Source: an uncultured Chloroflexia bacterium (lineage in GTDB: Bacteria > Chloroflexota > Dehalococcoidia > Dehalococcoidales > RBG-16-60-22). From it: 64,000 bases of DNA. Below the pieces are notes generated by a model that saw only the letters and a list, made by a program, of their open reading frames with translations, was not told where the DNA came from and did not search any database. The position numbers and the translations under genes are program-made. Shown here piece after piece: positions 767 through 57,494 of the stretch; within the stretch, counting starts at the first letter, position 1; the number at the start of each line of letters is the position of its first letter. Location: contig CAVUAE010000001.1 in assembly GCA_963739395.1 (NCBI GenBank), forward strand, positions 948,137-1,012,136. The letters run 5' to 3'.

Positions 767-1549
767 TTATTTACGGCGTCCAATTACCCTTATTAAAGCG
801 AAATATCTGCCCGCATCGGCTTTTAGTACCTCCGCTTCTGAAGGGAAGATAAGCGTACCAGCCTCATTGCAGGCATTTTCGTATTGCAGCCAGTCTTTCC
901 AGCCATCCTTTAAGACGTCCGCCGTTTCTACCGTTATCGAACTCATCCTTTCCCAGTGATTACGCCACCAGGCAGAGGTATGGAAACACCAACATTCGTC
1001 TACCCAAAAAGAAGTGCTATTTTTTCGTTTTTTAGTTAAATGCTTCGGAACTACTGCACCAAAGTACTTTAACCACCCCGGTACGACAATGCCGATTTGC
1101 CCGCCAGGCTTTACAAATTTCTGGAAGTAAGACAAATAGAGGTCGTCAGTGCCATAATACTGGTAAGAGTCCAGCGACACTATCGCATCGAAGAAACCCT
1201 CGGCATAGGGCAGGTCATGCGCTTCGGCGTGAATCGGACAGATTTGGTCTTCCATTCCTGCTTCTTTAATACGCTGCCAGTTTTCCGCGGCGCTTATCCA
1301 GAGGTCGTTAGCCCAAACCTTTACCCCGAACTCTTTCGCGAGGAAGATAGAGCTTAACGCCTTACCGCATCCCATATCCAGCACGCGCATCCCCGGTTTA
1401 AGCTCCATTTTTTCACAGAGCCACTCCGCCAGCCAGAGTACGTTAGGACCCATCCATCCTTTTAAGACCCACTCGGGGTCATATTTAGCCGAGCGAGGAT
1501 AGCGGTCGTTCTTCAATAGCTCCGTCATTCTTTTTTTGGTTATTTTCAT
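767..1549 (-). CDS. Class I SAM-dependent methyltransferase
   Basis: VLDMGCGKA motif I and LPYAEGFFDAIVS. Start moved to ATG 1549 (AAGGAG RBS) because the ORF-track extension overlaps tRNA-Gly. Confidence 0.88.
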   Translation of the reverse strand: MKITKKRMTELLKNDRYPRSAKYDPEWVLKGWMGPNVLWLAEWLCEKMELKPGMRVLDMGCGKALSSIFLAKEFGVKVWANDLWISAAENWQRIKEAGMEDQICPIHAEAHDLPYAEGFFDAIVSLDSYQYYGTDDLYLSYFQKFVKPGGQIGIVVPGWLKYFGAVVPKHLTKKRKNSTSFWVDECWCFHTSAWWRNHWERMSSITVETADVLKDGWKDWLQYENACNEAGTLIFPSEAEVLKADAGRYFALIRVIGRRK

Positions 1550-1667
1550 GATTACTCCTTTGTGTATCTTAATCAGCCGCCAAAAGGGAAGATATGTTAG
1601 GTTACAGGGCAAGAGTAATGGGATAACGTTATATATTGAGATTATTTTAGGATAGTAAACTAAATAC

Positions 1668-1742
<75 letters not shown>

Positions 1743-1846
1743 CCTAAAGCTTTATAATTTTAGCCCAAAAGGCCTGTGTTGTAAAGACTTTTTACAGCTA
1801 TGTCTGCTAGAAGTATATTTTATAAATAGTGTACTTAGTGTAACAT

Positions 1847-1875
1847 TTGACTTTTTTTCTAGGCATTGATATACT
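1847..1875 (+). promoter_or_regulatory. sigma70-like promoter of the corrinoid/URO-D operon
   Basis: TTGACT-N17-TATACT about 90 nt upstream of ATG 1962. Confidence 0.65.
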
Positions 1876-1961
1876 CGCCATGAACGATTTGTATTCGGAA
1901 CATTTCCGGTCTAATTGTTTCAATTTCTAGGATATCAAAAAATATTAAGGAGGATTTAGGT

Positions 1962-2597
1962 ATGTCCGGAGATTTTGTGAATTTGTTGGCTGATTTAAAA
2001 GAGGAAGAGGTACTCAAGCTGACCAAACAGCGGCTTGATTCGAAAGAAGACCCCCTCAAAATCCTCGAAGACGCTCGGAAGGGTATGGAAATCGTCGGCA
2101 AGCGGTTTGCCGGCGGCGAATACTTCCTGCCCGAGCTCGTCTTTTCCGGCGAGCTGCTCGCGCAGATTACTGCTATCGTGAAACCCCATCTCTCGGGGTC
2201 GGGGGTCCAGGTTAAGAAAATCGGCAAGGTCGTCATCGGCACAGTCGCCGGTGATATCCATGATATCGGCTTAAACATCGTCGATTTCATGCTCGATGTC
2301 AACGGCTTCGAGGTCACCAACCTCGGCGTCGATGTCCCGGTAGCAAAATTCGTTAAAGCCATGCAGGATACCAAGGCGCCTGTTCTCGGCTTAAGCGGAT
2401 TTCTTACCCCCGCCTTCGATGCCATGAAAGAAACCGTTGAGGCATTGGATAAAGCCGGTCTGCGCAAGAATATCAAAATCATGATTGGCGGCGGCCAGAT
2501 GGACGATGAGGTCCGCAAGTACGCCAAAGCCGATGCCTTCGGTAAAGACGCCATGGCGGCAGTTACACTCACCAAACAATGGTACGGTTTGAAATAA
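1962..2597 (+). CDS. Corrinoid (cobalamin-binding) methyl-carrier protein, MtaC/MttC-like
   Basis: N-terminal cap helices plus GTVAGDIHDIG (DxHxxG) and LGLSG motifs; AGGAGG RBS. Confidence 0.93.
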   Translation: MSGDFVNLLADLKEEEVLKLTKQRLDSKEDPLKILEDARKGMEIVGKRFAGGEYFLPELVFSGELLAQITAIVKPHLSGSGVQVKKIGKVVIGTVAGDIHDIGLNIVDFMLDVNGFEVTNLGVDVPVAKFVKAMQDTKAPVLGLSGFLTPAFDAMKETVEALDKAGLRKNIKIMIGGGQMDDEVRKYAKADAFGKDAMAAVTLTKQWYGLK

Positions 2598-2598
2598 T

Positions 2599-3933
2599 AT
2601 GGAAAAGACATGGGCGGAGTTGACTCCTCAAGAAAAGCAGGAACAGCGCTTTAAGCGGTGGCTTTCTCCGCCAGGTGTCACCTTTGCCAACCCGCAGGTA
2701 GAGAAAGCCTATAAAGAAAGAGTCACCAGGTTCATGAAGGCTTTCACCCTGCAGAAACCTGATAGGGTGCCCTGTATCCTGCCTACTGGGTTTTTTGCCG
2801 CTTCATACGCCGGCACCAATCTTGGAGAAGTCATGTATGACTATGACAAGATGAAAAGCGCCTGGCGTAAAATGCTGCATGACTTCGCTGATGCGGATAC
2901 TTATGTTGCCCCCGCCCTTGTGCCGCCCGGCCGTTCATTGGAAGCGATAGATTATAAGCTGTATAAATGGCCTGGACACGGTCTTTCCAAGACTACCCTT
3001 TCATATCAGGCGGTCGAGGGCGAGTGGATGAAAGCCGACGAATACGACGCTCTTATCCGCGACCCCTCCGATTTCTGGTTGCGGACTTATCTACCGAGGG
3101 TTTTTGGGGCGTTTAAGGCTTTTAACCAATTACCGACGTGGACGAGTTTTGAAGAAATAGCCACAATGTCCTTCATACCCTTCGGCAATCCGGACGTGCA
3201 GGCTGGTTTTAACGCCATCATGAAAGCCGGCACGGAAAGTCTTAAATGGATTGCGGCTGTCGGTGAGGTCGCTGCCGAATCGTCAGCGATGGGATTCCCT
3301 GGGATTATGAGTGGGCTGGCTAAAGCCCCCTTCGATACCCTGGGCGATACCCTACGCGGGACGCAGGGCGTGATGATGGATATGTTCCAGCGCCCGCAAA
3401 AACTCCACGAAGCCATGGAAAGATTAGTCCCTATTATTGTCCACGGGGCTTTATCAACAGTGGCTAATGCCGCGGCACCTATTATCATCATGCCGCTCCA
3501 TAAAGGCGCTGATAGCTTCATGTCTATTAAACAGTACGAAACCTTCTACTGGCCTACGTTTAAAAAAGTGGTCATGGCGATGGTCAATGAAGGCGTCTAC
3601 CCCATACTCTTCGCCGAGGGGAGTTATAACAAACGACTGGATATCATCGGCGACTTCCCTAAGGGCTCGGTTGCCTGGTACTTCGACCAGACGGATATTT
3701 TCGAGGCGAAGAAAAAAATCGGCAATAAATGCTGCATCATCGGCAACGTGCCAACCTCGTTAATCATGACGGGCACGCCGCAGCAGGTAAAAGAGCATTG
3801 CCGGAAACTTATCGAGGGCTGCGGCAAGGGCGGCGGTTACGTCCTCGCTGGTGGCGCAAATGTTGATGCAGGCAATCCGGAAAACCTGCGCGCTATGATG
3901 GCGGCAGTAAAAGAATACGGCGTATACAAGTAA
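2599..3933 (+). CDS. URO-D/MtaA superfamily protein, paralog 1
   Basis: PDRVP N-terminal motif, PFD..GDTLRG, MPLHKG, IIGNVP and GGGYVL, typical of the uroporphyrinogen decarboxylase-like TIM barrel. Confidence 0.85.
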   Translation: MEKTWAELTPQEKQEQRFKRWLSPPGVTFANPQVEKAYKERVTRFMKAFTLQKPDRVPCILPTGFFAASYAGTNLGEVMYDYDKMKSAWRKMLHDFADADTYVAPALVPPGRSLEAIDYKLYKWPGHGLSKTTLSYQAVEGEWMKADEYDALIRDPSDFWLRTYLPRVFGAFKAFNQLPTWTSFEEIATMSFIPFGNPDVQAGFNAIMKAGTESLKWIAAVGEVAAESSAMGFPGIMSGLAKAPFDTLGDTLRGTQGVMMDMFQRPQKLHEAMERLVPIIVHGALSTVANAAAPIIIMPLHKGADSFMSIKQYETFYWPTFKKVVMAMVNEGVYPILFAEGSYNKRLDIIGDFPKGSVAWYFDQTDIFEAKKKIGNKCCIIGNVPTSLIMTGTPQQVKEHCRKLIEGCGKGGGYVLAGGANVDAGNPENLRAMMAAVKEYGVYK

Positions 3934-4035
3934 ATTAAAGATATTAGCTATTTGCTGAAGGCAGGCATTTTCGCACCGTTTCTATAGGTGGGGGAATGCC
4001 TGTTAGTTCAAGCGATATATTTCTGGAGGTTTAAG

Positions 4036-5364
4036 ATGGCAAAACAATGGTCGGAAATGACCTGGCAGGAAAAGCGCGAGGAAAGATTTAAAAAGTGGCT
4101 CTCTCCCCCCGGTGTAAAATTACCTAATGCGGAAATAGAGAAAAAGTATCAAGCCCGCCTCACCCGCATGATTAAAGCCATTAAGATGGAAATTCCTGAC
4201 CGCGTCCCCATTCACCTAGCCGCGAACTCCTTCGTCGCTTACAATGCCGGTCATACTTTCAAAGACGTTCTCTATGATTATTCTTTGATTAAACCCTCCT
4301 GGATAAAATTCCTCGACGAGTTCGAACAAGATTCCGCCGATGCCCCCGGCTTTTTCTCCGCCAGGGTCTATGAAATCCTCGATTATAAATTAAACAAGTG
4401 GCCCGGGCATGGTTTGCCGGATAACTCTACCCTGCCTAATTTTGTGGAAAAAGAATATATGCAGGCTGATGAGTACGACCTCTTTATGAAAGAGCCTTTC
4501 GACTTCGGCGTGCGTCGTTTTACACCCCGCACCTGGGGCGCCTTCGAGCTTCTGGCTAATATCGGTCCCTTAACCTCCTATCAAGGCCTCCCCGACCAAC
4601 TGATGATGATGTGCCAGGACCCAAGATTTTTGAAGCTCGCTAAATCCATCTATGAAGCCAGCCAGGAAAGCGTTAAACACCAAAAGGTAATGGGCGAATG
4701 CGCCCAGGAATCTCTAAACAGGGGCTTCCCTCCCTTAATGGGCGGCGTGACGCTGGCGCCTTTTGATGTTGTAGCGGATATGCTACGCGGCACGCATGGC
4801 TCGGTGATGGATATGTATCGCCAGCCGGAAAAACTCCTTGAAGCGCTGGAATATATCACCAAGAACAGCATCGAGTCAACCGTAGGTATGGTTAATATGG
4901 CGCGCAGTCCTATCGTCTTCGTGCCCATGCATAAAGGCGATAAAAGCTTCATGTCTATCAAGCAGTTTGAAAAATTTTACTGGCCTACCTTCCGTAAACT
5001 CCTCTTGGGCGTGGTTAACGAAGGCTGTGTGCCAATGATGGTCATTGACGGCGAATATGATGAAGCACGCCTGAAACTCATCAGCGAATTACCGAAATCA
5101 TCTGTCGTTTGGACAATGGAAAAAACGGATATGGCGATGGCTAAAAAAATCCTGGGCAACTCCGCCTGCATCGCCGGCAATGTAACCGCGGCAATGCTTT
5201 ACACGCAAACCCCCAAGGCGATTAAGGAATACGCCCACAAGCTCATCGAAATTTGCGGTCCTGGCGGCGGCTATATCCTGGCACTCGGTTCCGGCATCGA
5301 TAAATGCAACCCCGCTAATTTGCACGCGGTTGTTGAAGCCGGTTTAGAATACGGTAAGTATTAG
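4036..5364 (+). CDS. URO-D/MtaA superfamily protein, paralog 2
   Basis: Same motifs (PDRVP, PFD..ADMLRG, VPMHKG, IAGNV, GGGYIL). Start set at ATG 4036 after GGAGG. Confidence 0.85.
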   Translation: MAKQWSEMTWQEKREERFKKWLSPPGVKLPNAEIEKKYQARLTRMIKAIKMEIPDRVPIHLAANSFVAYNAGHTFKDVLYDYSLIKPSWIKFLDEFEQDSADAPGFFSARVYEILDYKLNKWPGHGLPDNSTLPNFVEKEYMQADEYDLFMKEPFDFGVRRFTPRTWGAFELLANIGPLTSYQGLPDQLMMMCQDPRFLKLAKSIYEASQESVKHQKVMGECAQESLNRGFPPLMGGVTLAPFDVVADMLRGTHGSVMDMYRQPEKLLEALEYITKNSIESTVGMVNMARSPIVFVPMHKGDKSFMSIKQFEKFYWPTFRKLLLGVVNEGCVPMMVIDGEYDEARLKLISELPKSSVVWTMEKTDMAMAKKILGNSACIAGNVTAAMLYTQTPKAIKEYAHKLIEICGPGGGYILALGSGIDKCNPANLHAVVEAGLEYGKY

Positions 5365-5430
5365 AGTAGATAACAAAATCCATTATCACCTACACCCGAC
5401 CCTGTAATATTTTAAGGAGGGCATTCAATC

Positions 5431-6768
5431 ATGCAGCAAACCAAGAAATGGGAAGAGATGACCTGGCAGGAAAAACGCGAGGCGCGCTTTGACCGGTGGC
5501 TTAATCCGCCGGACGTAAAATTCATCAACAAGGAAGCGGAGCAGCTTTATAAAGCGCGTGTCACCCGATTCATTAAAGCTATCAAGCTGGAAGAACCCGA
5601 CCGTGTGCCGGTGATGCTCCCCGCCGGAAACTTTCCGGCTTTCTGGGCAGGCTCTTCCTTCCATGAGATAATGTACGACTATAAAAAAGGCAACGAAATC
5701 TGGAAGAAATATATGGCAGCATTCGGGGACATGGACACTTTTAACGGTCCATCCTTTATCCCCTCCGGTAAGATATCGGAAGTCATTCGCTCCAAGCAGA
5801 CAAGGCTGCCTGGGCTTGGTCTTCCCAAAGATGCCCCGATGAATCAGTTCGTCGAAGGCGAATACATGATGGCGGACGAGTATGACAAATATATGGAGGA
5901 CCCCACTGATTATAACCTCCGGGTGATGATGCCCCGCACCACTCCCCTCTTCGAGTCTTTCAGAAAACTCCCGCCTTTGAGCAACATGATGGGTAATTTC
6001 TGGGTGATGGCTCTAAGTGACCCGGATATTCGCAAGACTTTCGAGACACTCATGTCGCTGACCGATGAACAAAAGAAACACACAGCAGCTAGTTTTGAAA
6101 TCAACCAGTATATTAAAGAACGTGGCTATCCTTCATTATGGGGCGGAGGCATTATGGCGGCGGCGCCCTTCGACCATTTTGCCGACGCTTTACGCGGCAC
6201 ACAGGGCATCGCCAAAGACATGTTCCGCCAGCCGAAGAAATTGCATCAGGCTATGGAGTGGTATGTCAAACGGACTATTGAGACCAATATCAAGAACTTC
6301 CCCATAACGTCAAGTCCCCTCTGTATGATGCCCCTGCATAAAGGCGACGATGCTTTCATGTCCGATAAGCAGTTCGCCGAGTTCTACTGGCCTACTTACC
6401 GGCAGGTACTCATGGCGATGATTAACGAGGGTCTGGTGCCCATGCCTTTTGCTGAAGGGCGCTACACCAAACGCCTCAAGCAAATCAATGATACGCCTCC
6501 GAGCGGCGTCGTCTGGTACTTCGACCAGACGGATATGAAAGAAGCTAAACGCATTCTCGGTAACATTTGCTGTATCGCCGGTAATGTGCCAACCTCGATT
6601 ATGATTAAAGGCACTACTGAATCGGTGAAAGAATACTGTCGCAAGCTTATCGCCGACTGCAAGCCGGGCGGCGGTTTCATACTTGCTGGTGGCGCCAGTG
6701 TCGATTCCGGTAAAATAGAAAACCTGAAAGCCATGATGGAAGCCGCCAAGGAATATGGGAAGTATTAG
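5431..6768 (+). CDS. URO-D/MtaA superfamily protein, paralog 3
   Basis: PDRVP, PFDHFADALRG, MPLHKG, IAGNVP, GGGFIL; AAGGAGG RBS. Confidence 0.85.
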   Translation: MQQTKKWEEMTWQEKREARFDRWLNPPDVKFINKEAEQLYKARVTRFIKAIKLEEPDRVPVMLPAGNFPAFWAGSSFHEIMYDYKKGNEIWKKYMAAFGDMDTFNGPSFIPSGKISEVIRSKQTRLPGLGLPKDAPMNQFVEGEYMMADEYDKYMEDPTDYNLRVMMPRTTPLFESFRKLPPLSNMMGNFWVMALSDPDIRKTFETLMSLTDEQKKHTAASFEINQYIKERGYPSLWGGGIMAAAPFDHFADALRGTQGIAKDMFRQPKKLHQAMEWYVKRTIETNIKNFPITSSPLCMMPLHKGDDAFMSDKQFAEFYWPTYRQVLMAMINEGLVPMPFAEGRYTKRLKQINDTPPSGVVWYFDQTDMKEAKRILGNICCIAGNVPTSIMIKGTTESVKEYCRKLIADCKPGGGFILAGGASVDSGKIENLKAMMEAAKEYGKY

Positions 6769-6780
6769 GGAAAAAGAAGA

Positions 6781-6850
6781 AGTAGACAGTTTACGGTTGA
6801 CAGTACCCTTTTCTTTTCGCTAACACTGTAAACTGTGTACTGTAAACTGT
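6781..6850. repeat. Heptamer tandem repeats arranged as an inverted pair
   Basis: AGTAGAC-AGTTTAC-GGTTGAC-AGT (6781-6804) faces ACTGTAA-ACTGTGT-ACTGTAA-ACTGT (6825-6850). Confidence 0.6.
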
Positions 6851-6877
6851 TGACATTACACTACGGAGGATGACCAG

Positions 6878-8212
6878 ATGTTTACTAGACCAGATAATTG
6901 GGCAAGTCTTACCTGGCAGCAAAAACGCGACCTGCGCCTTAACCATTGGATAAGCGCCCCAGGTATCAAGTTCGTCAATAAACAAGCAGAAAAAGATTAC
7001 AAAGCACGCGTCACTCGCCTGGCGAAAGCCGTGAAAATGGAAATCCCCGACCGCGTTCCCTGTATGATTCCCACCGGCTGGTTTCCCGCCCAGAACGCCG
7101 GCGTCCCGCTTAAGAAAGTCATGTATGACCCCGAACTGATGAAAAAGGTCTGGCTTAAGTTCGTTGATGAATACGACTCCGATTCTTTCGACGGTACGCT
7201 TTTCTTCCAGGCAAAAATCAATGAATTGATGGAAGCCAAGACAATGAAATGGCCCGGTCATGGTCTGCCGGACGAAGCTCATTCCTATCAATACGTGGAA
7301 GGCGTCTATATGCAAGCCGATGAATACGACCTTTTTATGAAAGACCCCTTCGACTTCCAGTTGCTCAAGCTTTTACCGCGTACCATGGGTGTTTTCGAGC
7401 CATTCAAGGATATGGCTTCGTTTTCGTCTTATCAAGGACTTCCCCAGCGCTTGATGATGATGTGCCTTGACCCGAAATTCCAAAAATTATTTAAAGCCAT
7501 CAAAGAATCCAGTAAGGAACTGCCAGCCTGGGGCAAAGCCAACGCCGAGACCACGGCGGGCGCCAACGCCAAGGGATTCCCTGTTTTCCGCGGCGGTCTG
7601 GCAGTCGCCCCATTTGACGTTTTTGCCGATAGCCTGCGCGGCACGCAGGGCATCGTCATGGATATGTTCCGCCAGCCGGAAAAAATACATGAGGCGATGG
7701 AGTTTGTCCTGCCCCAATTACTAACCGGATCTATTTCTATGGCGGACGGCGCTGATTGTCCGGTCATCATGATGCCCTTGCATAAAGGTGACGATACCTT
7801 TATGTCCGATAAACAGTTCGAGGTGTTTTACTGGCCAACCTTCCGCCGCCTTCTGCTAGGTATGGTTGACGAGGGACTGGTCCCCTATCCCGTGGCAGAA
7901 GGCGCTTACAATCGGCGTCTGGAATATATCTCGGATATGCCTAAATCCGCCATCGCCTGGATGTTCGACCAGACCAATATGGCTAATGCCAAGAAAACAG
8001 TCGGCAAAGTTTCCTGCATCGCCGGTAATGTACCGGTGTCCATCGCCTATACAAAGTCGGCGGCGGAGATGAAAGAGTATTGTCGTAAGCTTATTGAAAC
8101 CTGCGCCCCGGGCGGCGGTTATATCCTCACCGGCGGCTCCACTTTTGACATGGCTAAACCGGAAAACCTACGCGCTATGATGGATGCCGCTAAGGAGTAT
8201 GGGAAGTACTAG
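6878..8212 (+). CDS. URO-D/MtaA superfamily protein, paralog 4
   Basis: PDRVP, PFDVFADSLRG, MPLHKG, IAGNVP, GGGYIL; GGAGG RBS. Confidence 0.85.
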   Translation: MFTRPDNWASLTWQQKRDLRLNHWISAPGIKFVNKQAEKDYKARVTRLAKAVKMEIPDRVPCMIPTGWFPAQNAGVPLKKVMYDPELMKKVWLKFVDEYDSDSFDGTLFFQAKINELMEAKTMKWPGHGLPDEAHSYQYVEGVYMQADEYDLFMKDPFDFQLLKLLPRTMGVFEPFKDMASFSSYQGLPQRLMMMCLDPKFQKLFKAIKESSKELPAWGKANAETTAGANAKGFPVFRGGLAVAPFDVFADSLRGTQGIVMDMFRQPEKIHEAMEFVLPQLLTGSISMADGADCPVIMMPLHKGDDTFMSDKQFEVFYWPTFRRLLLGMVDEGLVPYPVAEGAYNRRLEYISDMPKSAIAWMFDQTNMANAKKTVGKVSCIAGNVPVSIAYTKSAAEMKEYCRKLIETCAPGGGYILTGGSTFDMAKPENLRAMMDAAKEYGKY

Positions 8213-8219
8213 TTTAACT

Positions 8220-8339
8220 GTCATTGCGAGCCCCGCCTTGTCGGGGCGCGGCAATCTCAAACACCGATTTTAATAATAGATAGGGATTGCCACGTCGCTT
8301 TGGTTCGACAAGCTCATCACGAGCGCTCCTCGTAATGAC
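8220..8339. repeat. REP/MITE-like palindromic element
   Basis: Terminal inverted repeat GTCATTGCG...CGTAATGAC with internal GCAATCT/GGATTGC arms and nested hairpins. Confidence 0.7.
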
Positions 8340-8363
8340 AAAGTGCGTTAACAGGAGGCTACT

Positions 8364-9707
8364 ATGGATGGCATTGCTAACTGGAAAGAATTAACTCCTG
8401 ACCAGAAAAGGCAAGCCAGATTTAAACGCTGGCTGGATGCCCCCGGCCTTAAATTTAAGAATAAAGAAGCGGAACAACTTTATAAGACTAGAGTAACCCG
8501 TTACATCAAAGCCATCAGCATGGAAGAAGCCGACCGCGTTCCCTGCAGCCTGCCTTTAGGCTGGTTCCCCGCTTATTATGCCGGTTACGACCTTAAAACG
8601 GTAATGTATGATTACGGAAAAATGAAAAAAGCCTGGCTGAAGTTTGTGCATGATTTCGGCGATATGGATAGTCACGGTGGACCCGGACTCATCCTGCCGG
8701 CGAAAGCGCTGGAAATTTTGGGACACAAAATGCATAAATGGCCGGGACATGGTCTCGCCGATAATGTGCCCTCGTACCAGTTTGTCGAAAGCGAGTACAT
8801 GAAAGCTAATGAATACGACCACCTCATCCAGGACCCCTCTGATTTCTGGCTGCGTGTTTTCATGCCCCGCCAAGCCGATGCATTCGCCCCGTTGGCAAAA
8901 TTCATGCATTTGAACCCGGTAATAGGCTTACCTATCAGTACCATACCAGCGTTCTCCACGCCGGAGATGCAGGCGATGTTTAAGAAAATCTGGGCTGCCG
9001 GTGCCGAGATGGATAAATGGATGAAAGTCATCGGTGAGGTAAACAACACGACGTTATCCGAAGGCTTACCGTCTTTTAACGGAGGCGGTTATTCCGGGGC
9101 GCCATTTGATATGCTGACTGATTTTTGCCGGGGTACGCAGGGTATTTTCATGGATGTCTTTCGTCAGCCGGGAAAAATTCATGAAGCCATGGAAAGACTG
9201 GTGCCCATTATGATTGAAGCAGCGGTAAGTTCCGCCGAGGGTTCGTTATCGCCGGTTCTTATGATGCCCCTGCACAAGGGCGAAAAAGGCTTCATGTCCC
9301 CCAAGCAGTTCGAGGAATTTTACTGGCCTACTTTTAAACGGGTCCTACTGGGGATTATTAATGAAGGTCTCGTGCCGATGCCATTTGCCGAGGGCAACTA
9401 TATACCCCGCCTGGAAATCATCCAGGATATGCCTAAAGGCTCGATAGTCTGGTACTTCGAATATATGGATATGGCGCATGCCAAACGGACAGTCGGTAAG
9501 AAAAATTGCATTATGGGCAACCTGCCGATTTCTATTATGGTTACCGGCACGGCGAAGGAAGTAAAAGAAGGCTGTCGTAAGCTTATCGAGGACTGTGCCG
9601 CCGGCGGAGGTTATGTTCTGACTGCCGCCGCCCAAATGGACCAGGGTAAGATAGAAAACCTGCATGCTATGATGGACGCGGCTAAAGAGTACGGCGTTTA
9701 TAAATAG
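8364..9707 (+). CDS. URO-D/MtaA superfamily protein, paralog 5
   Basis: ADRVP, PFDMLTDFCRG, MPLHKG, IMGNLP, GGGYVL; AGGAGG RBS. Confidence 0.85.
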   Translation: MDGIANWKELTPDQKRQARFKRWLDAPGLKFKNKEAEQLYKTRVTRYIKAISMEEADRVPCSLPLGWFPAYYAGYDLKTVMYDYGKMKKAWLKFVHDFGDMDSHGGPGLILPAKALEILGHKMHKWPGHGLADNVPSYQFVESEYMKANEYDHLIQDPSDFWLRVFMPRQADAFAPLAKFMHLNPVIGLPISTIPAFSTPEMQAMFKKIWAAGAEMDKWMKVIGEVNNTTLSEGLPSFNGGGYSGAPFDMLTDFCRGTQGIFMDVFRQPGKIHEAMERLVPIMIEAAVSSAEGSLSPVLMMPLHKGEKGFMSPKQFEEFYWPTFKRVLLGIINEGLVPMPFAEGNYIPRLEIIQDMPKGSIVWYFEYMDMAHAKRTVGKKNCIMGNLPISIMVTGTAKEVKEGCRKLIEDCAAGGGYVLTAAAQMDQGKIENLHAMMDAAKEYGVYK

Positions 9708-9747
9708 AGATTCAGCGATAAATGAAAAAGAAAAGGACTAGTCAGCC

Positions 9748-11058
9748 ATGACATGGCAGGAAAAACGGGAAGAAAGATTTAAGAAATGGCTCGAAGCTCC
9801 CGGCGTCACCTTCAACAGCCCGGAGGCGAAAAGGAAATATCAGGAGCGCGTCACCCGCTTCATTAAAGTCATCAAACTGGAAAAACCCGACCGCGTGCCG
9901 GTGATTTTACCAGCTGGTTATTATCCCGCTATTTACGCCGGTTATTCTCTCAAAGAGGTCATGTACGATTATAAAAAGCTGGCTAAAGCCTGGCTGAAGT
10001 TTAACCATGATTTCCAGCCGGATAGTTTTATTGGCCCTGGTCTGGTATATCCCGGCCGTGTTATCGAGAAAATCGGTCATAAGCTGCATAAATGGCCCGG
10101 CCATGGTCTACCGGATAATGCCCCTATGTATCAATTCGTCGAGGGCGTTTATATGCAGCCGGAGGAATACGATGACTTTATAGAAAATCCCACCGAGTAC
10201 TGGATGAGGGTTTTCTTACCCCGTACCGCCGGTGCCCTCGAGTCCTTCCAGTATCTGACGCCCTTTAACCCCGTTATGACTAATCCGCTCGGCTGGGTAA
10301 TGTCTTTCGCTAATCTTGACGTGCGAAAATCCTTTGAGTCATTAATTGACGCCGGTAAGGAAATCGCTAAATGGCGCGACGCCGTCGGCAAAGTCAACCA
10401 AGAGGCGTTGGCGGAGGGTTTCGCTTCGTTCAGCGGGGCAGCTATGGCTGGCGCGCCTTTCGACAACCTTTCCGATGTCCTCCGCGGCACTCAGGGCATC
10501 GTCATGGATATGTTCCGCCGACCGGATAAAATTAAAGAGGCTATGGAGCGGCTGGTACCCATCATCGTTAAAGGGGCGGTGAAGGGAGCCGAAAATTCTT
10601 TGAGTCCGGTGGTCATGATGCCCCTGCATAAAGGCGATAATTCCTTCATGTCCGGCAAGCAGTTCGAGGAATTTTACTGGCCTACCTTAAAGAAAGTGCT
10701 GCTTGGTATGGTCAACGAGGGACTCGTCCCCATGCCCTTTGCCGAGGGCAATTACGAGCCCCGACTCGACCTTATAAAAGATATGCCCCACTCATCGGTC
10801 GTCTGGTACTTCGAGGTCATGGACATGTCGAAGGCCAAAAAAGTATTAGGTAATGTATCCTGTATCACCGGCAATGTCCCCGCCTCGATAGTCGCCACTG
10901 GCACGCCCGAAGAAGTTAAACAAGCCTGCCGCAAGCTAATAACTATCTGCGCTCCCGGTGGCGGTTATATTCTCATGGGCGCAGCCAGCGTCAGTAAATG
11001 CAATCCGGAGAACCTGCACGCCATGATGGCAGCGGCGGAGGAATACGGCAAGTATTAA
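9748..11058 (+). CDS. URO-D/MtaA superfamily protein, paralog 6
   Basis: PDRVP, PFDNLSDVLRG, MPLHKG, ITGNVP, GGGYIL. Confidence 0.85.
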   Translation: MTWQEKREERFKKWLEAPGVTFNSPEAKRKYQERVTRFIKVIKLEKPDRVPVILPAGYYPAIYAGYSLKEVMYDYKKLAKAWLKFNHDFQPDSFIGPGLVYPGRVIEKIGHKLHKWPGHGLPDNAPMYQFVEGVYMQPEEYDDFIENPTEYWMRVFLPRTAGALESFQYLTPFNPVMTNPLGWVMSFANLDVRKSFESLIDAGKEIAKWRDAVGKVNQEALAEGFASFSGAAMAGAPFDNLSDVLRGTQGIVMDMFRRPDKIKEAMERLVPIIVKGAVKGAENSLSPVVMMPLHKGDNSFMSGKQFEEFYWPTLKKVLLGMVNEGLVPMPFAEGNYEPRLDLIKDMPHSSVVWYFEVMDMSKAKKVLGNVSCITGNVPASIVATGTPEEVKQACRKLITICAPGGGYILMGAASVSKCNPENLHAMMAAAEEYGKY

Positions 11059-11210
11059 ATACGTTTAATACGTATACCTTGCTTATCTTATTTTCTTTAT
11101 CAGCATTTTAGCGGATGCAAGAATTTTTAATTTAAGGCATAATAGATAGGATGCCCTATTGAAACCGTCTAAGAATACGGTTTAGATAAATAAAAACAGG
11201 AGAAATAATA

Positions 11211-12068
11211 ATGGAAACAAAAGTATCTACCCCGACTAGAGAAGTCATCATTTCTTACGACCGTCCTACGGTTATCATCGGCGAGCGTATAAATCCGACC
11301 GGTAAGAAGAAACTCGCTGAAGCGCTTAAAAACGGCGACCTTTCTGTCGTCAAAAAGGAAGCTTTGGAACAGGTTGCCGCCGGCGCAACTATCCTCGACT
11401 GCAACGTCAATGCCCCCGGCGTTAATGATGTGAAACTTCTCCCCGAGGCTATTAAACTCATTCAGGCAACGGTTGACGTGCCTCTCTGCATCGATAGTCC
11501 CAACTCCGATGCTCTAGAAGCCGGACTGAAAGTCTATAAAGGCAAACCGCTGGTCAACTCCGTGAGTGCAGAAAAAGCAAAACTAGAGCGCGTCCTGCCC
11601 CTAATCAAAGAGTACGGCGCCGCGGTCACCGGTTTAGTCCAGGACGAAGATGGCATTCCTAAAACCGCCGAACGCCGCGTGGCTAATGCTTATAAGATTG
11701 TCGAGGCCGCCGCGAAAATGGGTATCCCCAAGGAAGATATCATTATCGATGTCATGACTTATCCTATCGGCGTCGAGCCTAAAGCCGCTATGGACGTTCT
11801 CGCCGCCTTGCGACAGATACGTAAGGAGCTTGGCTTGAACATGACGATGGGCGCAAGCAATATATCTTTCGGCATGCCGGATCGACCGATACTGAATAGT
11901 GCCTGGATAGCGATGGTTATCGAGGCTGGCGGTACCGCTCTAATTGCCGACGCGGCTAAGGTTATGCCGGCCGTGTTATCCGCCGACCTTCTCCTGGGGC
12001 GCGATAGGTTCGCCCGGCGCTATCTGGAAGACCACCGCAAACGCGCTGCCGAACAGCCGCCGAAATAA
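11211..12068 (+). CDS. Pterin-binding methyl-THF:corrinoid methyltransferase (AcsE/MetH pterin-domain-like)
   Basis: IIGERINPTGKK, ILDCN, PLCIDS, LVNSVS, IIIDV and GASNISFGMP motifs. Confidence 0.9.
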   Translation: METKVSTPTREVIISYDRPTVIIGERINPTGKKKLAEALKNGDLSVVKKEALEQVAAGATILDCNVNAPGVNDVKLLPEAIKLIQATVDVPLCIDSPNSDALEAGLKVYKGKPLVNSVSAEKAKLERVLPLIKEYGAAVTGLVQDEDGIPKTAERRVANAYKIVEAAAKMGIPKEDIIIDVMTYPIGVEPKAAMDVLAALRQIRKELGLNMTMGASNISFGMPDRPILNSAWIAMVIEAGGTALIADAAKVMPAVLSADLLLGRDRFARRYLEDHRKRAAEQPPK

Positions 12069-12101: not shown

Positions 12102-12131
12102 GGGGTGGGGATATGTAATCCTCACCCCCTT
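12102..12131 (+). terminator. Probable terminator hairpin after the methyl-transfer locus
   Basis: GGGGTGGGG...CCTCACCCC stem with a short T tail. Confidence 0.45.
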
Positions 12132-12181: not shown

Positions 12182-12256
<75 letters not shown>

Positions 12257-43634: not shown

Positions 43635-43751
43635 CTTGGTGGTTAGAGCGAGGTGGTCCCACCCGTTCCCATCCCGAACACGGAAGTGAAACGCCCCAGC
43701 GCAGACGATACTGAGGGGACAACCCTTTGTGGAAAATATGCCACTGCCAGG
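43635..43751 (+). rRNA. rrf: 5S rRNA (stand-alone)
   Basis: CTTGGTGG...CCACCCGTTCCCATCCCGAACACGGAAGTGAA...GACGATACT...CTGCCAGG, with helix I pairing. Confidence 0.95.
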
Positions 43752-43926
43752 AGACTTTTCTTTTTTCATGCATAAAAAGGTCACTTCGACAAGCTCAGGA
43801 CAAGCTATTTCTACGTAAATACAGCCATTTATTGCAAGGGTTACCCCTCTTGCTTTACCAGTGGTGATATTATAAGATTAGAAATAGAGAGTCACTCACC
43901 ACACAAATTTACACCAAAGAATCTAT

Positions 43927-55357: not shown

Positions 55358-56206
55358 TTAGTCCTCCCGCCAGTCCCAATCCCTCCCGCCCTTAAAGACA
55401 GCCGAGTTCATTTCATTGCTCAAGAAAATGAGGTTGGCATCCGGGAAACGCATCGCCATATTGTAGAAAAACGTGCCGGTGTCCTTTGTCTTTTTGAGTT
55501 CTTCTTCAGTGGCGGTTAAATATTCTTTCATAAATTTAAATGAAGAGTTATCGAAGGGCATGCCTGGCTTCTGGTGTCCTGGAATGACGACCTCAGCGCC
55601 CATTTTCTCCAAACGCTCGATGTCCTTATACCACTGCTTACGCTCTTCCGCCGTTATCTCGCAGGTAAATGGGTGCGCCTGGTTAAAGAGAACATCGCTG
55701 CAGTAGAGGGTTTTTATCGAGGGAATCCAGACGACGGTATTGTATTTCAAGTCGCCCATGATTTCCGGGATTATCTCGATGCGCTTGCCTTCTAACTCAA
55801 AGTAATTTTTCGTGAGAGGCTCGATATTAACCGCTTTAGTGGGCACGTTGGTCGGCCCGATGACAGGTGTCCAGTGCTCGATTTTGCCGAACATCTGCTT
55901 ATTAATGGTGTGGGCGACTGAGGGCAGGGCGATGACCTTCGCCTTAGGGAAGGCTTCGGTAATTGGTCCTAAACCGAAGTAATGGTCGGGGTGGGCGTGA
56001 GTAACATAGATGTATTTCAAGTGCTTGCCTGTTTCCAGTATTTCCGCAGCGACACGGTGTCCGTTGGACAAACTCCACTGCGCATCGAGTAAAGCGGCAT
56101 CGGTTTTGCCTATAACGATGACCGAAGCAACGGAGAAACCGCTTTCATCGGAGAAAAAGACTTTAGTAGTCAGTCCATTTTCGTGTTTATTAATTCTAAC
56201 TTCCAT
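55358..56206 (-). CDS. MBL-fold metallo-hydrolase
   Basis: THAHPDHYFG (HxHxDH), SDV, IPGH. Confidence 0.9.
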   Translation of the reverse strand: MEVRINKHENGLTTKVFFSDESGFSVASVIVIGKTDAALLDAQWSLSNGHRVAAEILETGKHLKYIYVTHAHPDHYFGLGPITEAFPKAKVIALPSVAHTINKQMFGKIEHWTPVIGPTNVPTKAVNIEPLTKNYFELEGKRIEIIPEIMGDLKYNTVVWIPSIKTLYCSDVLFNQAHPFTCEITAEERKQWYKDIERLEKMGAEVVIPGHQKPGMPFDNSSFKFMKEYLTATEEELKKTKDTGTFFYNMAMRFPDANLIFLSNEMNSAVFKGGRDWDWRED

Positions 56207-56234: not shown

Positions 56235-57494
56235 TTAATATTTACCGTACTCTTTCGTAAACTCAATCATAGCTTTGAGGTTTTCCGGCTTGACCTCGTC
56301 GGTAGAGGAGCGGGGGGATAGTATATAGCCGCCGCCCTTGCCGCAGATATCAATGAGTTTCTTGCAGTGGGCGATGACGTCTTCCTTACTCCCCACCTGT
56401 AAAAGTGAAGACGGCACATTCCCCTCAATGCAGATATGGCCCTTCAGGACATCTTTAGCTCTAAAGATATCCGTGGTATCAAAACGCGCCAGTATCGAGC
56501 CTTTGGGGAACTCCAACAGGTATTCTAGTCTTGAAGTAAAGTTGCCCTCGAAGAAGATGCAGGGTGTTAAACCTTTTTGAACCAGCCCCATGACCAGCTT
56601 TTTAAATGTCGGCCAGTAGAACCGTTTAAACTGCGCCATGGACATGAATTCATCGGAGCCGCGGGTATTGGTCATGAAAATGCGGGTATAGCCGTTCTCG
56701 GTCGGTTCGGGGTTTGTCCTCTCCAGCGACTTCTTTAAGATGAACTCACACATTTCCTCGATTTTCTCCGGTTGGCGGAACATATCCATCATCGTGCCGC
56801 TCATGCCGCGTAAAGAGTGAGAAATAACGTCGAAGGGAGGCATCGCCGCCCCCTGGAAATATTCCGGAAAGCCCATATCCAGTATCATCTGGCTAAATTT
56901 CCTCATCTTCGGCAGCCACTTGCGCATTTCACGTCCTGCTTTTTGTAGAGTACTAATAGCTTTAGCAGTTCTAGGTTCTGAGAAAGCCAGTGCTAGCGCC
57001 TGCGCACCCATCTGGCCAGCAATATCGGAGAGCTTGGGGATATCAGCCATACCCATCAGATTATCGCTGGTGCGGGAGATGAAAATGCGGAACATAAAAT
57101 CGGAGGGGTCGCGCATATAAGCGTCATACTCATCTGCCTTCAGGTTATCTATCTCGATAGCCTGGTGTCCTTGGTGCGGGTCGACGCCATGCCCGGGCCA
57201 ACGCATCGTCTTGGGAGCGATGATTTCCAGGGCTTTCCCCGGCGTAAACCCCTGGGGGAAAATCATATCCGCCGGGAAGTCCTGCAGAGTCTTTTTATAA
57301 GCGTTGTACCAGGCATCGAAATCATAATAAGCCGCGGAACAAAGTATCCCGGTATATTTAGCGGGGAAGTAGCCGATGGCGCTGATAACCGGCACTCTAT
57401 CCGTCGGCTTAAGCTGGATGGTATTCATGATTCTAGTTTCGCGTTCTTTCCGCAGCTGCTTGCCCGATTTACCATCATTAGGTTGACGAACCAT
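56235..57494 (-). CDS. URO-D/MtaA superfamily protein, paralog 7
   Basis: TDRVP, MRWPGHG, PFD...SLRG, FYWPTFKK, IEGNVP, GGGYIL; NTRG replaces the HKG motif. Confidence 0.85.
   Translation of the reverse strand: MVRQPNDGKSGKQLRKERETRIMNTIQLKPTDRVPVISAIGYFPAKYTGILCSAAYYDFDAWYNAYKKTLQDFPADMIFPQGFTPGKALEIIAPKTMRWPGHGVDPHQGHQAIEIDNLKADEYDAYMRDPSDFMFRIFISRTSDNLMGMADIPKLSDIAGQMGAQALALAFSEPRTAKAISTLQKAGREMRKWLPKMRKFSQMILDMGFPEYFQGAAMPPFDVISHSLRGMSGTMMDMFRQPEKIEEMCEFILKKSLERTNPEPTENGYTRIFMTNTRGSDEFMSMAQFKRFYWPTFKKLVMGLVQKGLTPCIFFEGNFTSRLEYLLEFPKGSILARFDTTDIFRAKDVLKGHICIEGNVPSSLLQVGSKEDVIAHCKKLIDICGKGGGYILSPRSSTDEVKPENLKAMIEFTKEYGKY

Follow-up and report, generated by a model that had tools for sequence, protein, structure and literature searches.

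Lignin methoxy groups are among the largest reservoirs of methyl carbon in anoxic sediments, and their removal is assigned mainly to acetogens and, lately, also to some methanogens, Archaeoglobus, and Bathyarchaeia. In the O-demethylases of acetogens and Desulfitobacterium, as in the Mto and Cdm systems, it is established that the methyl group passes from a methyltransferase I (MT-I) to a corrinoid protein (CP) and from there, by a methyltransferase II (MT-II, here MT2), to tetrahydrofolate (THF), with the assistance of a RACE activator, and Acetobacterium dehalogenans alone reportedly has 26 such systems (PMC13222342). The present analysis concerns a stretch of 64,000 nucleotides (nt), called the window below, from the genome of an uncultured Chloroflexia bacterium of the order Dehalococcoidales (1.79 Mb, two contigs, 95% complete; window at C1:948137-1012136). 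At positions 1962-12068 of the window, eight co-directional genes, namely, one CP, six paralogs of the URO-D fold, and one MT2, probably form one operon that acts as a three-component cobamide-dependent hub, carrying methyl groups from substrate to CP to THF.

The cluster had been described in an earlier note as eight co-directional genes, and the list of open reading frames (ORFs) together with the domain assignments bears out their number and positions, which are the following:

1962-2597, plus strand: CP, 211 amino acids (aa), with the DxHxxG motif (PF02607 and PF02310).
2599-3933, plus strand: MT-I paralog, slot a, 444 aa (PF01208, 99 bits).
4036-5364, plus strand: MT-I paralog, slot b, whose ORF opens with GTG at 3988 (PF01208).
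5431-6768, plus strand: MT-I paralog, slot c, 445 aa (PF01208).
6878-8212, plus strand: MT-I paralog, slot d, 444 aa (PF01208).
8364-9707, plus strand: MT-I paralog, slot e, 447 aa (PF01208).
9748-11058, plus strand: MT-I paralog, slot f, 436 aa, with an N-terminus about 8 residues shorter (PF01208).
11059-11210, plus strand: remnant left by the deletion of a seventh MT-I slot, "g" (alignment to two related genomes, G154 and G158).
11211-12068, plus strand: MT2, methyl-corrinoid:tetrahydrofolate methyltransferase, 285 aa (PF00809, NF005719).

Each gene of the cluster begins with an ATG preceded by a GGAGG-like ribosome-binding site, and the true start of slot b is probably the ATG at 4036, which lies behind GGAGG, rather than the GTG at 3988. 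An in-frame TAG upstream of slot f was considered as coding read-through and rejected, as it sits in the spacer and ribosome-binding region. A 250-aa ORF antisense to the CP gene (1859-2611, minus strand) is probably spurious. Intergenic gaps of 102-152 nt within the cluster leave room for internal promoters.

The earlier proposal of a three-part corrinoid methyltransferase system agrees with the domains, the structure matches, and the trees of CP, MT-I, and MT2 alike. The CP consists of a B12-binding_2 and a B12-binding domain and carries the cobalamin-ligand motif DxHxxG as GDIHDIG; its nearest PDB entry is 4jgi, the CP of an O-demethylase of Desulfitobacterium hafniense (E 1e-40). MT2 scores 101 bits with Pterin_bind (PF00809) and 292 bits, against a cut-off of 259, with NF005719, the model of methyl-THF:corrinoid/iron-sulfur protein methyltransferase. 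Its PDB matches are the MeTr structures 2yci (1e-46) and 2e7f (1e-40) and the MT2 of a D. hafniense O-demethylase, 4o0q (1e-37). The earlier note was correct in stating that the window holds no activator. A search of the genome, as it had suggested, identified a single activator of the RACo type (PF14574, 310 bits), which has a 2Fe-2S domain at its N-terminus and is located at C1:83459-85405, unlinked and about 865 kb from the cluster.

By tblastn, the whole genome holds 11 MT-I paralogs, which occupy about 0.8% of the DNA of this genome of about 1.8 Mb and are served by just two CPs and two pterin-binding methyltransferases. The second CP lies directly before the MT-I at C1:919620-920960, and the second pterin-binding gene is AcsE-like. 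This second pair of CP and MT-I is preceded, within C1:916745-920960, by two Cys-rich DUF6144 proteins, one of which is fused to a Cass2/GyrI-like effector-binding domain; both may serve the methyltransferase system as sensors or in an accessory role. The sole other B12-binding match in the genome is a glutamate-mutase-like small subunit.

The six MT-I paralogs (436-447 aa, with slots b-f 45-54% identical to slot a) match PF01208 (URO-D) with 67-99 bits, the match covering model positions ~112-346 and thus the C-terminal half only. They were compared with reference MT-I sequences from Supplementary Data 3 of PMC13222342. The closest characterized enzyme by blastp is MtvB, the vanillate O-demethylase MT-I of Moorella thermoacetica, with 30-36% identity (36% over 413 aa, E 2e-72, for slot a and 30% for slot d). 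MtoB shares 24-28% and CdmB 26-28% of residues with the paralogs, and OdmB, VdmB, CmuA, MecE, and UroD gave only fragmentary matches. The only solved structure found at the sequence level is that of CdmB, 9rui (profile E 5e-60).

In a maximum-likelihood tree with these references ("quick" IQ-TREE search), a group of 43 rows with an SH-aLRT support of 100 contains the paralog family together with MtvB, MtoB, and CdmB. Three subclades are recognized in it: CdmB with MtoB, MtvB with several A. dehalogenans paralogs, and the present family, which is a clade of its own (33 rows, SH-aLRT 99) and leaves the six paralogs outside the MtvB clade; the branching order among the three is unsettled in this tree. 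OdmB/VdmB, CmuA, MecE/MecC, and UroD fall outside the group, UroD being the most distant. On the basis of this grouping, the six paralogs are assigned to an uncharacterized clade within the MtvB/MtoB/CdmB group of MT-I enzymes. The phylogeny that the earlier note had proposed, together with the model scores and blastp, places them away from HemE, MtaA, and CmuA, and no grouping with HemE was seen.

An AlphaFold2 model of slot a (pLDDT 94, pTM 0.91) predicts a URO-D-type barrel, with target-normalized TM scores of 0.64-0.72 to HemE and MtaA (4ay7), and additional helices between the first strands, as reported for CdmB. Foldseek against the PDB returned only HemE and MtaA barrels for slot a, with HemE structures best at 13-17% identity, because its PDB library (to April 2026) does not contain 9rui. 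The N-terminal motif read earlier in all six paralogs, W..LT.QEK.E.RF..WL..PG..F.N...Y..RVTR, agrees with the alignment consensus, and their divergence in the middle, likewise noticed before, is seen as the lowest conservation at residues ~181-240. The N-terminal motif of about 30 residues (W..LT.QEK.E.RF..WL) is carried by the array slots and by certain solitary paralogs; the homologue of Neomoorella stamsii retains it only in part, and it is missing from MtvB, MtoB, CdmB, and the class-wide 414-aa type.

In the proposed mechanism, six substrate-specific MT-I enzymes, which would be URO-D-fold TIM barrels with N-terminal and inter-strand extensions, would each present a methylated substrate to the Co(I) of one common CP. 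The single MT2 would unload the methyl-Co(III) CP onto THF, and the distant RACo-type, ATP-dependent activator would re-reduce any CP oxidized to Co(II). Methyl-THF would be oxidized towards formate, with ATP gained at Fhs, or be used in C1 anabolism. The analysis shows which genes are present, to which family they belong, how they are conserved and selected, and which partner genes the genome has or lacks, and we infer the direction of methyl flow, the substrate class, the separate specificities, and the fate of methyl-THF.

As regards the substrate class, the residues of the catalytic face were numbered in an alignment with the MtvB, MtoB, and CdmB references. His301, which ends the strand 295-300, is shared by every slot of the array, three solitary paralogs, the homologues from Neomoorella and Bathyarchaeia, MtvB, and MtoB. 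Glu340 (F-A-E-G) is present in five slots, MtvB, and MtoB, and is Asp in slot b. CdmB has Trp at the position of His301 and Gln at that of Glu340. A two-residue insertion, H-[KR]-G-[AD], is common to the paralogs and MtvB only. It has been proposed that CdmB provides a hydrophobic scaffold and is otherwise passive, the halomethane being intrinsically reactive (PMC13222342). The retained His301 and Glu340 would fit, without proving, substrates that need activation, such as ethers. Since both residues are kept as in MtvB and MtoB and lost in CdmB, methyl ethers, e.g., lignin-derived methoxy-aromatics, are favored over halomethanes as the predicted substrates. A test for a CdmB-type haloalkane MT-I failed as well, as the identity to CdmB lies below the threshold of at least 40% set for CdmB-like sequences (PMC13222342) and His301 and Glu340 are kept.

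The strongest competing explanation, which is unlikely but deserves weight, holds that the same machinery acts on halomethanes, methyl-thio compounds (dimethyl sulfide or methylmercaptopropionate), O-methylated sugars, or other methylated metabolites, and the six slots could span several substrate classes. The family is a clade without a characterized member that branches beside, and not inside, the MtvB group, and CdmB shows that relatives of O-demethylases can switch to haloalkanes (PMC13222342). Moreover, the solitary MT-I paralog at C1:1245869-1247182, outside the window, has Trp (PLWRG) at the His301 position, as CdmB does. In the array itself, however, His301 is kept in every slot and Glu340 in all but b, where CdmB replaced both, and no sugar-, sulfur-, or halide-related genes stand beside the array, either in the window or in relatives.

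One more member of the fold is encoded in the window, far from the array:

56235-57494, minus strand: solitary seventh URO-D paralog, 419 aa, with a short N-terminus (PF01208, 69.5 bits).

This protein does not have His301 (NTRG stands in place of HKG), is 40% identical to slot a, and groups with the class-wide 414-aa type. It is adjoined on its downstream side by a Vmh-family metallo-hydrolase of the metallo-beta-lactamase fold (55358-56206; 178 bits, below the cut-off).

The preference for methyl ethers leaves the question of why there should be six enzymes, and here the evolution of the array is informative. In a sample of 151 genomes spread evenly over the class, the family is carried at E <= 1e-40 by 12, one of them the window's own, and by none of the complete genomes of the same order within this sample. 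In the same genus and family, paralogs are present in 23 of 24 other genomes, with 7-28 copies each in tandem arrays, and the order CP-a-b-c-d-e-f-(g)-MT2 recurs in 12 related arrays that were fetched. In a tree of 91 sequences, each slot forms a clade of its own with an SH-aLRT support of 100 (13 rows for slot a, 12 each for b and c, 10 for d, 7 for e, and 6 for f). The clades of slots a-d and g take in members from other genera, and since the slots are separate clades with such members, their duplications predate the radiation of the family. Purifying selection acts on MT2 and on every one of the six slots: dN/dS against the relative G158 is 0.07 for a, 0.08 for b, 0.08 for c, 0.05 for d, 0.11 for e, 0.07 for f, and 0.08 for MT2.

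Eight relatives carry an intact slot g next to MT2. In the window, the 5′ part of the 152-nt spacer at 11059-11210 aligns to the f-to-g spacer and the first bases of g in G154, and its 3′ part aligns to the last g codons and the g-to-MT2 junction in G154 and G158. This spacer before MT2 is a clean deletion scar of slot g. In other arrays, slots e, f, or g are missing or extra slots are present, and the array size among relatives is four to about ten slots, fragments counted. From these comparisons, slots are seen to be gained and lost within a fixed chromosomal site.

Slot-specific residues were analyzed in 68 orthologues of the seven slots, in which 82 columns are invariant and 31 are fixed within slots and differ among at least four of them. 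The 31 columns cluster at residues 85-125, 160-200, 241-259, 305-315, and 342-364, that is, in the extension region and beside the invariant APFD..RG, HKG, AEG, and FDQ motifs, at the C-terminal ends of barrel strands. Such a pattern would be expected for a common catalytic scaffold with diverged substrate sites and argues against simple redundancy.

It is improbable, in this regard, that the six paralogs are isozymes acting redundantly on a single substrate and kept for reasons of dosage or for different conditions. All six do share the same invariant catalytic-face motifs, and the variation in array size implies that single slots are dispensable. Nevertheless, the duplications are older than the family radiation and the slots have remained distinct clades, with orthologues 70-92% identical to the window slot and paralogs 45-54%; the positions that differ between slots lie next to active-site motifs, and no slot has escaped purifying selection. 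Because ancient paralogs are kept slot by slot across a family of Dehalococcoidales, the six MT-I enzymes most likely differ in substrate. The earlier suggestion of six MT1-like enzymes with different substrates is therefore plausible, given ancient slots under purifying selection with slot-specific residues beside invariant motifs.

The opposite direction of flow is very improbable. In this scheme, MT2 would load the CP from methyl-THF and six MtaA-like enzymes would methylate six acceptors, such as thiols, metalloids, or metabolites. The URO-D fold does include MtaA, MtbA, and MtsA, seen here as weak NCBIfam matches and, for MtaA (4ay7), as a match by fold, and reactions of MeTr-type MT2 enzymes are reversible, as established for AcsE. 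MtaA homologues also occur in a widespread cluster for which methyl-sulfur or selenium compounds are the proposed substrates (PMC10418091). However, the paralogs score just 27-51 bits with the MtaA/CmuA models (TIGR01463 included) against cut-offs of at least 235, and the MtaA-type zinc motif H-x-C...C is missing, the aligned residues being H-K-G. The paralogs group, moreover, with enzymes that move methyl from substrate to Co(I), and six conserved acceptor-specific methylases on one carrier would have no precedent. Finally, the possibility that the paralogs are genuine HemE or other decarboxylases unrelated to the neighboring CP is negligible, for although Pfam URO-D is their sole family match and HemE gave the best fold matches in the PDB library used, they score at most 34.5 bits with the hemE model TIGR01464 against a cut-off of 303, share the low identity to HemE structures given above, have UroD as the most distant sequence of the tree, and are linked to CP and MT2 across genera.

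With demethylation towards THF as the preferred reading, the fate of the methyl group has to be considered. The earlier note had assigned it to the Wood-Ljungdahl pathway and proposed a search for the genes of that pathway. The THF methyl branch was found: Fhs (688 bits), FchA, a FolD-like protein, AcsD, AcsC, and an AcsE-like protein are encoded in one cluster at C1:781450-788110, followed by NuoE/F-like genes, and MetF (146 bits) and a MetV-like gene adjoin NiFe hydrogenase genes. The lack of this branch, which the earlier note had named as evidence against its proposal, thus does not apply. Acetyl-CoA synthase (ACS; PF03598) and carbon monoxide dehydrogenase (CODH; PF03063), on the other hand, gave no match in the 95%-complete genome. 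The PF03598 model is valid, as it detects AcsB in 25 of 41 relatives. Within the genus, it detects nothing in 11 of 18 genomes, among them that of the window and some that are 88-94% complete, and in one further relative of the genus ACS is in two pieces. Since ACS and CODH are absent, the Wood-Ljungdahl end point does not hold in the window's genome, whereas the modular demethylation with which it had been proposed is supported by the parts and by slot conservation. With the THF methyl branch present and ACS/CODH absent, oxidation of methyl-THF or C1 anabolism is preferred over acetate formation, and the predicted pathways suggest that the methyl groups most likely feed methyl oxidation or C1 anabolism and not acetogenesis.

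The AcsD/AcsC subunits of the corrinoid/iron-sulfur protein and the AcsE-like gene (C1:784916-788110) are kept beside fhs-fchA-folD despite the lack of ACS/CODH. A MetH-type methionine module was considered as a methyl sink and rejected, as no homocysteine or MetH-like gene was found in the genome. There are three molybdopterin enzymes in the genome, none of which is shown to be a formate dehydrogenase. Two of them, outside the window, are cytoplasmic molybdopterin/tungsten enzymes: one of 710 aa (C1:30834-32966) that matches acetylene hydratase 2e7z (3e-107) and one of 741 aa (C1:724453-726678) that is closely similar to the former and has the same N-terminal sequence. Neither is formate dehydrogenase-like. 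Crude motif screens of the genome gave no rdhA-like ORF.

Several points weigh against the demethylation hub as described. The substrate class is an extrapolation, because the six enzymes belong to a clade of their own without a characterized member and are 30-36% identical to MtvB, and enzymes of the URO-D fold also run in the opposite way, as in MtaA-type transfer from methyl-cobamide to a thiol. Neither a transporter nor a gene of an aromatic-ring pathway adjoins the cluster, and the sequence occurs in DNA sequencing runs only and in none of RNA. As for methyl oxidation, crude, limited motif scans of the genome identified no formate dehydrogenase, and the oxidative route is for this reason incomplete on paper. 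The persistence of AcsC, AcsD, and the AcsE-like protein without ACS finds no explanation in the model, and the absence calls are not absolute because the assembly is 95% complete.

The borders of the cluster and its predicted expression signals are as follows:

1668-1742, minus strand: tRNA-Gly(CCC), left border (ARAGORN and Rfam).
1847-1875, plus strand: candidate sigma-70-type promoter, TTGACT, 17 nt (with TG), TATACT (consensus scan, 10/12 matches).
12102-12128, plus strand: terminator-like hairpin after MT2, 11 pairs, with a weak T tail (consensus scan only).
12182-12256, plus strand: tRNA-Met(CAT), right border (ARAGORN and Rfam).

Window-wide, 19 promoter-like sites were found against 16.3 expected, a number that within the window alone is indistinguishable from chance. 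The site at 1847-1875 is near-invariant upstream of ten related arrays although the flanks have diverged, and on this comparative ground it is accepted as the operon promoter. It corresponds to the single promoter predicted earlier before the cluster and is conserved in 10/10 related arrays. Just upstream of the -35 hexamer (window 1790-1846), a direct repeat, AGTATA(T/C)...AGTATAC, lies within AAGTATATTTTATAAATAGT(G/A)TACT; it is kept in same-genus arrays and may be an operator. The 5′ leader shows a short hairpin at 1895-1909, fixed in position and variable in sequence. A more extended leader structure was not supported, the single-sequence fold having z = 0.25 and the consensus fold of ten leaders reaching just -0.8 kcal/mol. 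Neither a cobalamin nor any other riboswitch was found upstream of the CP by Rfam, whose matches in the window are tRNAs and one 5S rRNA.

Among ten relatives scanned, another genus included, tRNA-Met stands beside MT2 in all and tRNA-Gly beside the array in nine; in the tenth (L035), the contig starts inside the CP gene. A 317-aa S-adenosylmethionine-dependent methyltransferase ORF (767-1720, minus strand) overlaps tRNA-Gly with its 5′ end, and its real start is therefore placed further downstream. The interruption of a CotH gene by insertion of the cluster was considered and rejected because the two CotH-like fragments are encoded on opposite strands. At 43635-43752, the window also contains an isolated 5S rRNA gene (Rfam, 82 bits), and no 23S or 16S match adjoins it there.

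Beyond the close relatives, a scan of one genome per species gave at least 593 relatives, and the sequence itself is present in DNA runs from freshwater sediment and wetland metagenomes. Full-length homologues (48-56% identity) occur in metagenome-assembled genomes labelled Acidobacteriota, Bathyarchaeia, Promethearchaeota, Thermodesulfobacteriota, Spirochaetes, and Anaerolineales, and also in the cultured Neomoorella stamsii DSM 26217. In the tree, three of these homologues (L051, L067, and L080, whose assemblies carry the labels Thermodesulfobacteriota, Acidobacteriota, and Spirochaetes) branch within the array slots of Dehalococcoidales. This placement points to horizontal exchange of individual slots, but the same branching would also arise from mis-binned contigs.

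Dehalococcoidia rank with the most abundant uncultured bacteria of sediments. It has been reported that lignin stimulates uncultured Dehalococcoidia in sediments, with no mechanism given (PMC10116835), and no published link between Dehalococcoidia and this MT-I family was found in the literature. Considered jointly, the results allow a tentative and still doubtful proposal, namely, that a family of small-genome, apparently non-organohalide-respiring Dehalococcoidales of freshwater sediment, wetland, and peat lives largely by demethylating many methoxylated compounds, its ACS/CODH-less members oxidizing the methyl group syntrophically. If this were true, a vertically inherited, tRNA-bracketed array of 4 to ~10 slots would operate within a set of 7-28 MT-I genes per genome, and the THF methyl branch would run in reverse, with electrons leaving as H2 or formate to partners. 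Such a non-acetogenic, non-methanogenic, syntrophic "methoxydotrophy" would explain the stimulation by lignin. A conserved operon in which a single carrier is combined with six to eight putative ancient MT-I specificities offers a concrete, testable mechanism, and the diverged slots, with their 31 candidate specificity positions, represent a natural panel for the study of substrate selection in this MT-I clade, for which Neomoorella stamsii provides a cultured handle. The absence of ACS/CODH raises the question of methyl fate, which bears on the fluxes of H2, formate, and methane in sediments.

Among the known systems, MtvABC of Moorella thermoacetica (MtvB WP_011391929.1) is like the present cluster in combining a URO-D-fold MT-I, a corrinoid protein, and a THF methyltransferase, and MtvB shares with the window paralogs the motifs KAPFDTLGDTLRG, the L-H-[KR]-G-A insertion, and FAEG. 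In contrast to MtvB, the window paralogs form a separate clade and have about 30 extra N-terminal residues, and the window operon places six MT-I genes on one CP and one MT2 in a Dehalococcoidales host without ACS/CODH. The MT-I of MtoABCD, from Methermicoccus shengliensis and Archaeoglobus fulgidus (the reference set has two MtoB paralogs from each), belongs to the same superclade and conserves His and Glu. It differs in its lower identity of 24-28%, and whereas the methyl acceptor of the archaeal Mto system is tetrahydromethanopterin, the window MT2 is a THF-type MeTr.

The chloromethane system CdmBCA of Acetobacterium dehalogenans (9rui; PMC13222342) follows the same MT-I/CP/MT2 logic, and CdmB is likewise a TIM barrel in which extensions separate the first strands (PMC13222342). 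CdmB is unlike the paralogs in sequence (26-28% identity), in the Trp and Gln that replace His301 and Glu340, and in having no K-G insertion, and it does not convert methoxy-aromatics (PMC13222342). The OdmB/VdmB systems of A. dehalogenans and Desulfitobacterium hafniense share the overall logic, and the CP and MT2 of the window are close to 4jgi and 4o0q, but their MT-I enzymes, some of which are reported as zinc enzymes (PMC13222342), are remote, with fragmentary matches of 21-24% outside the clade. The nearest counterpart in a cultured organism is the triplet of Neomoorella stamsii DSM 26217 (L070), which has the order CP-MT-I-MT2; its MT-I, the closest homologue found in such an organism, is 50% identical over residues 2-443 and falls in the long-N-terminus subclade. 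This triplet is uncharacterized and, unlike the window operon, has one MT-I only. Relative to all these systems, what appears to be new is an MT-I clade without a characterized member in which one CP and one MT2 would serve six to eight ancient slots, the organization of the hub as one predicted promoter-to-terminator unit at a fixed, tRNA-bracketed site, and its occurrence in a small-genome Dehalococcoidales host without ACS/CODH.

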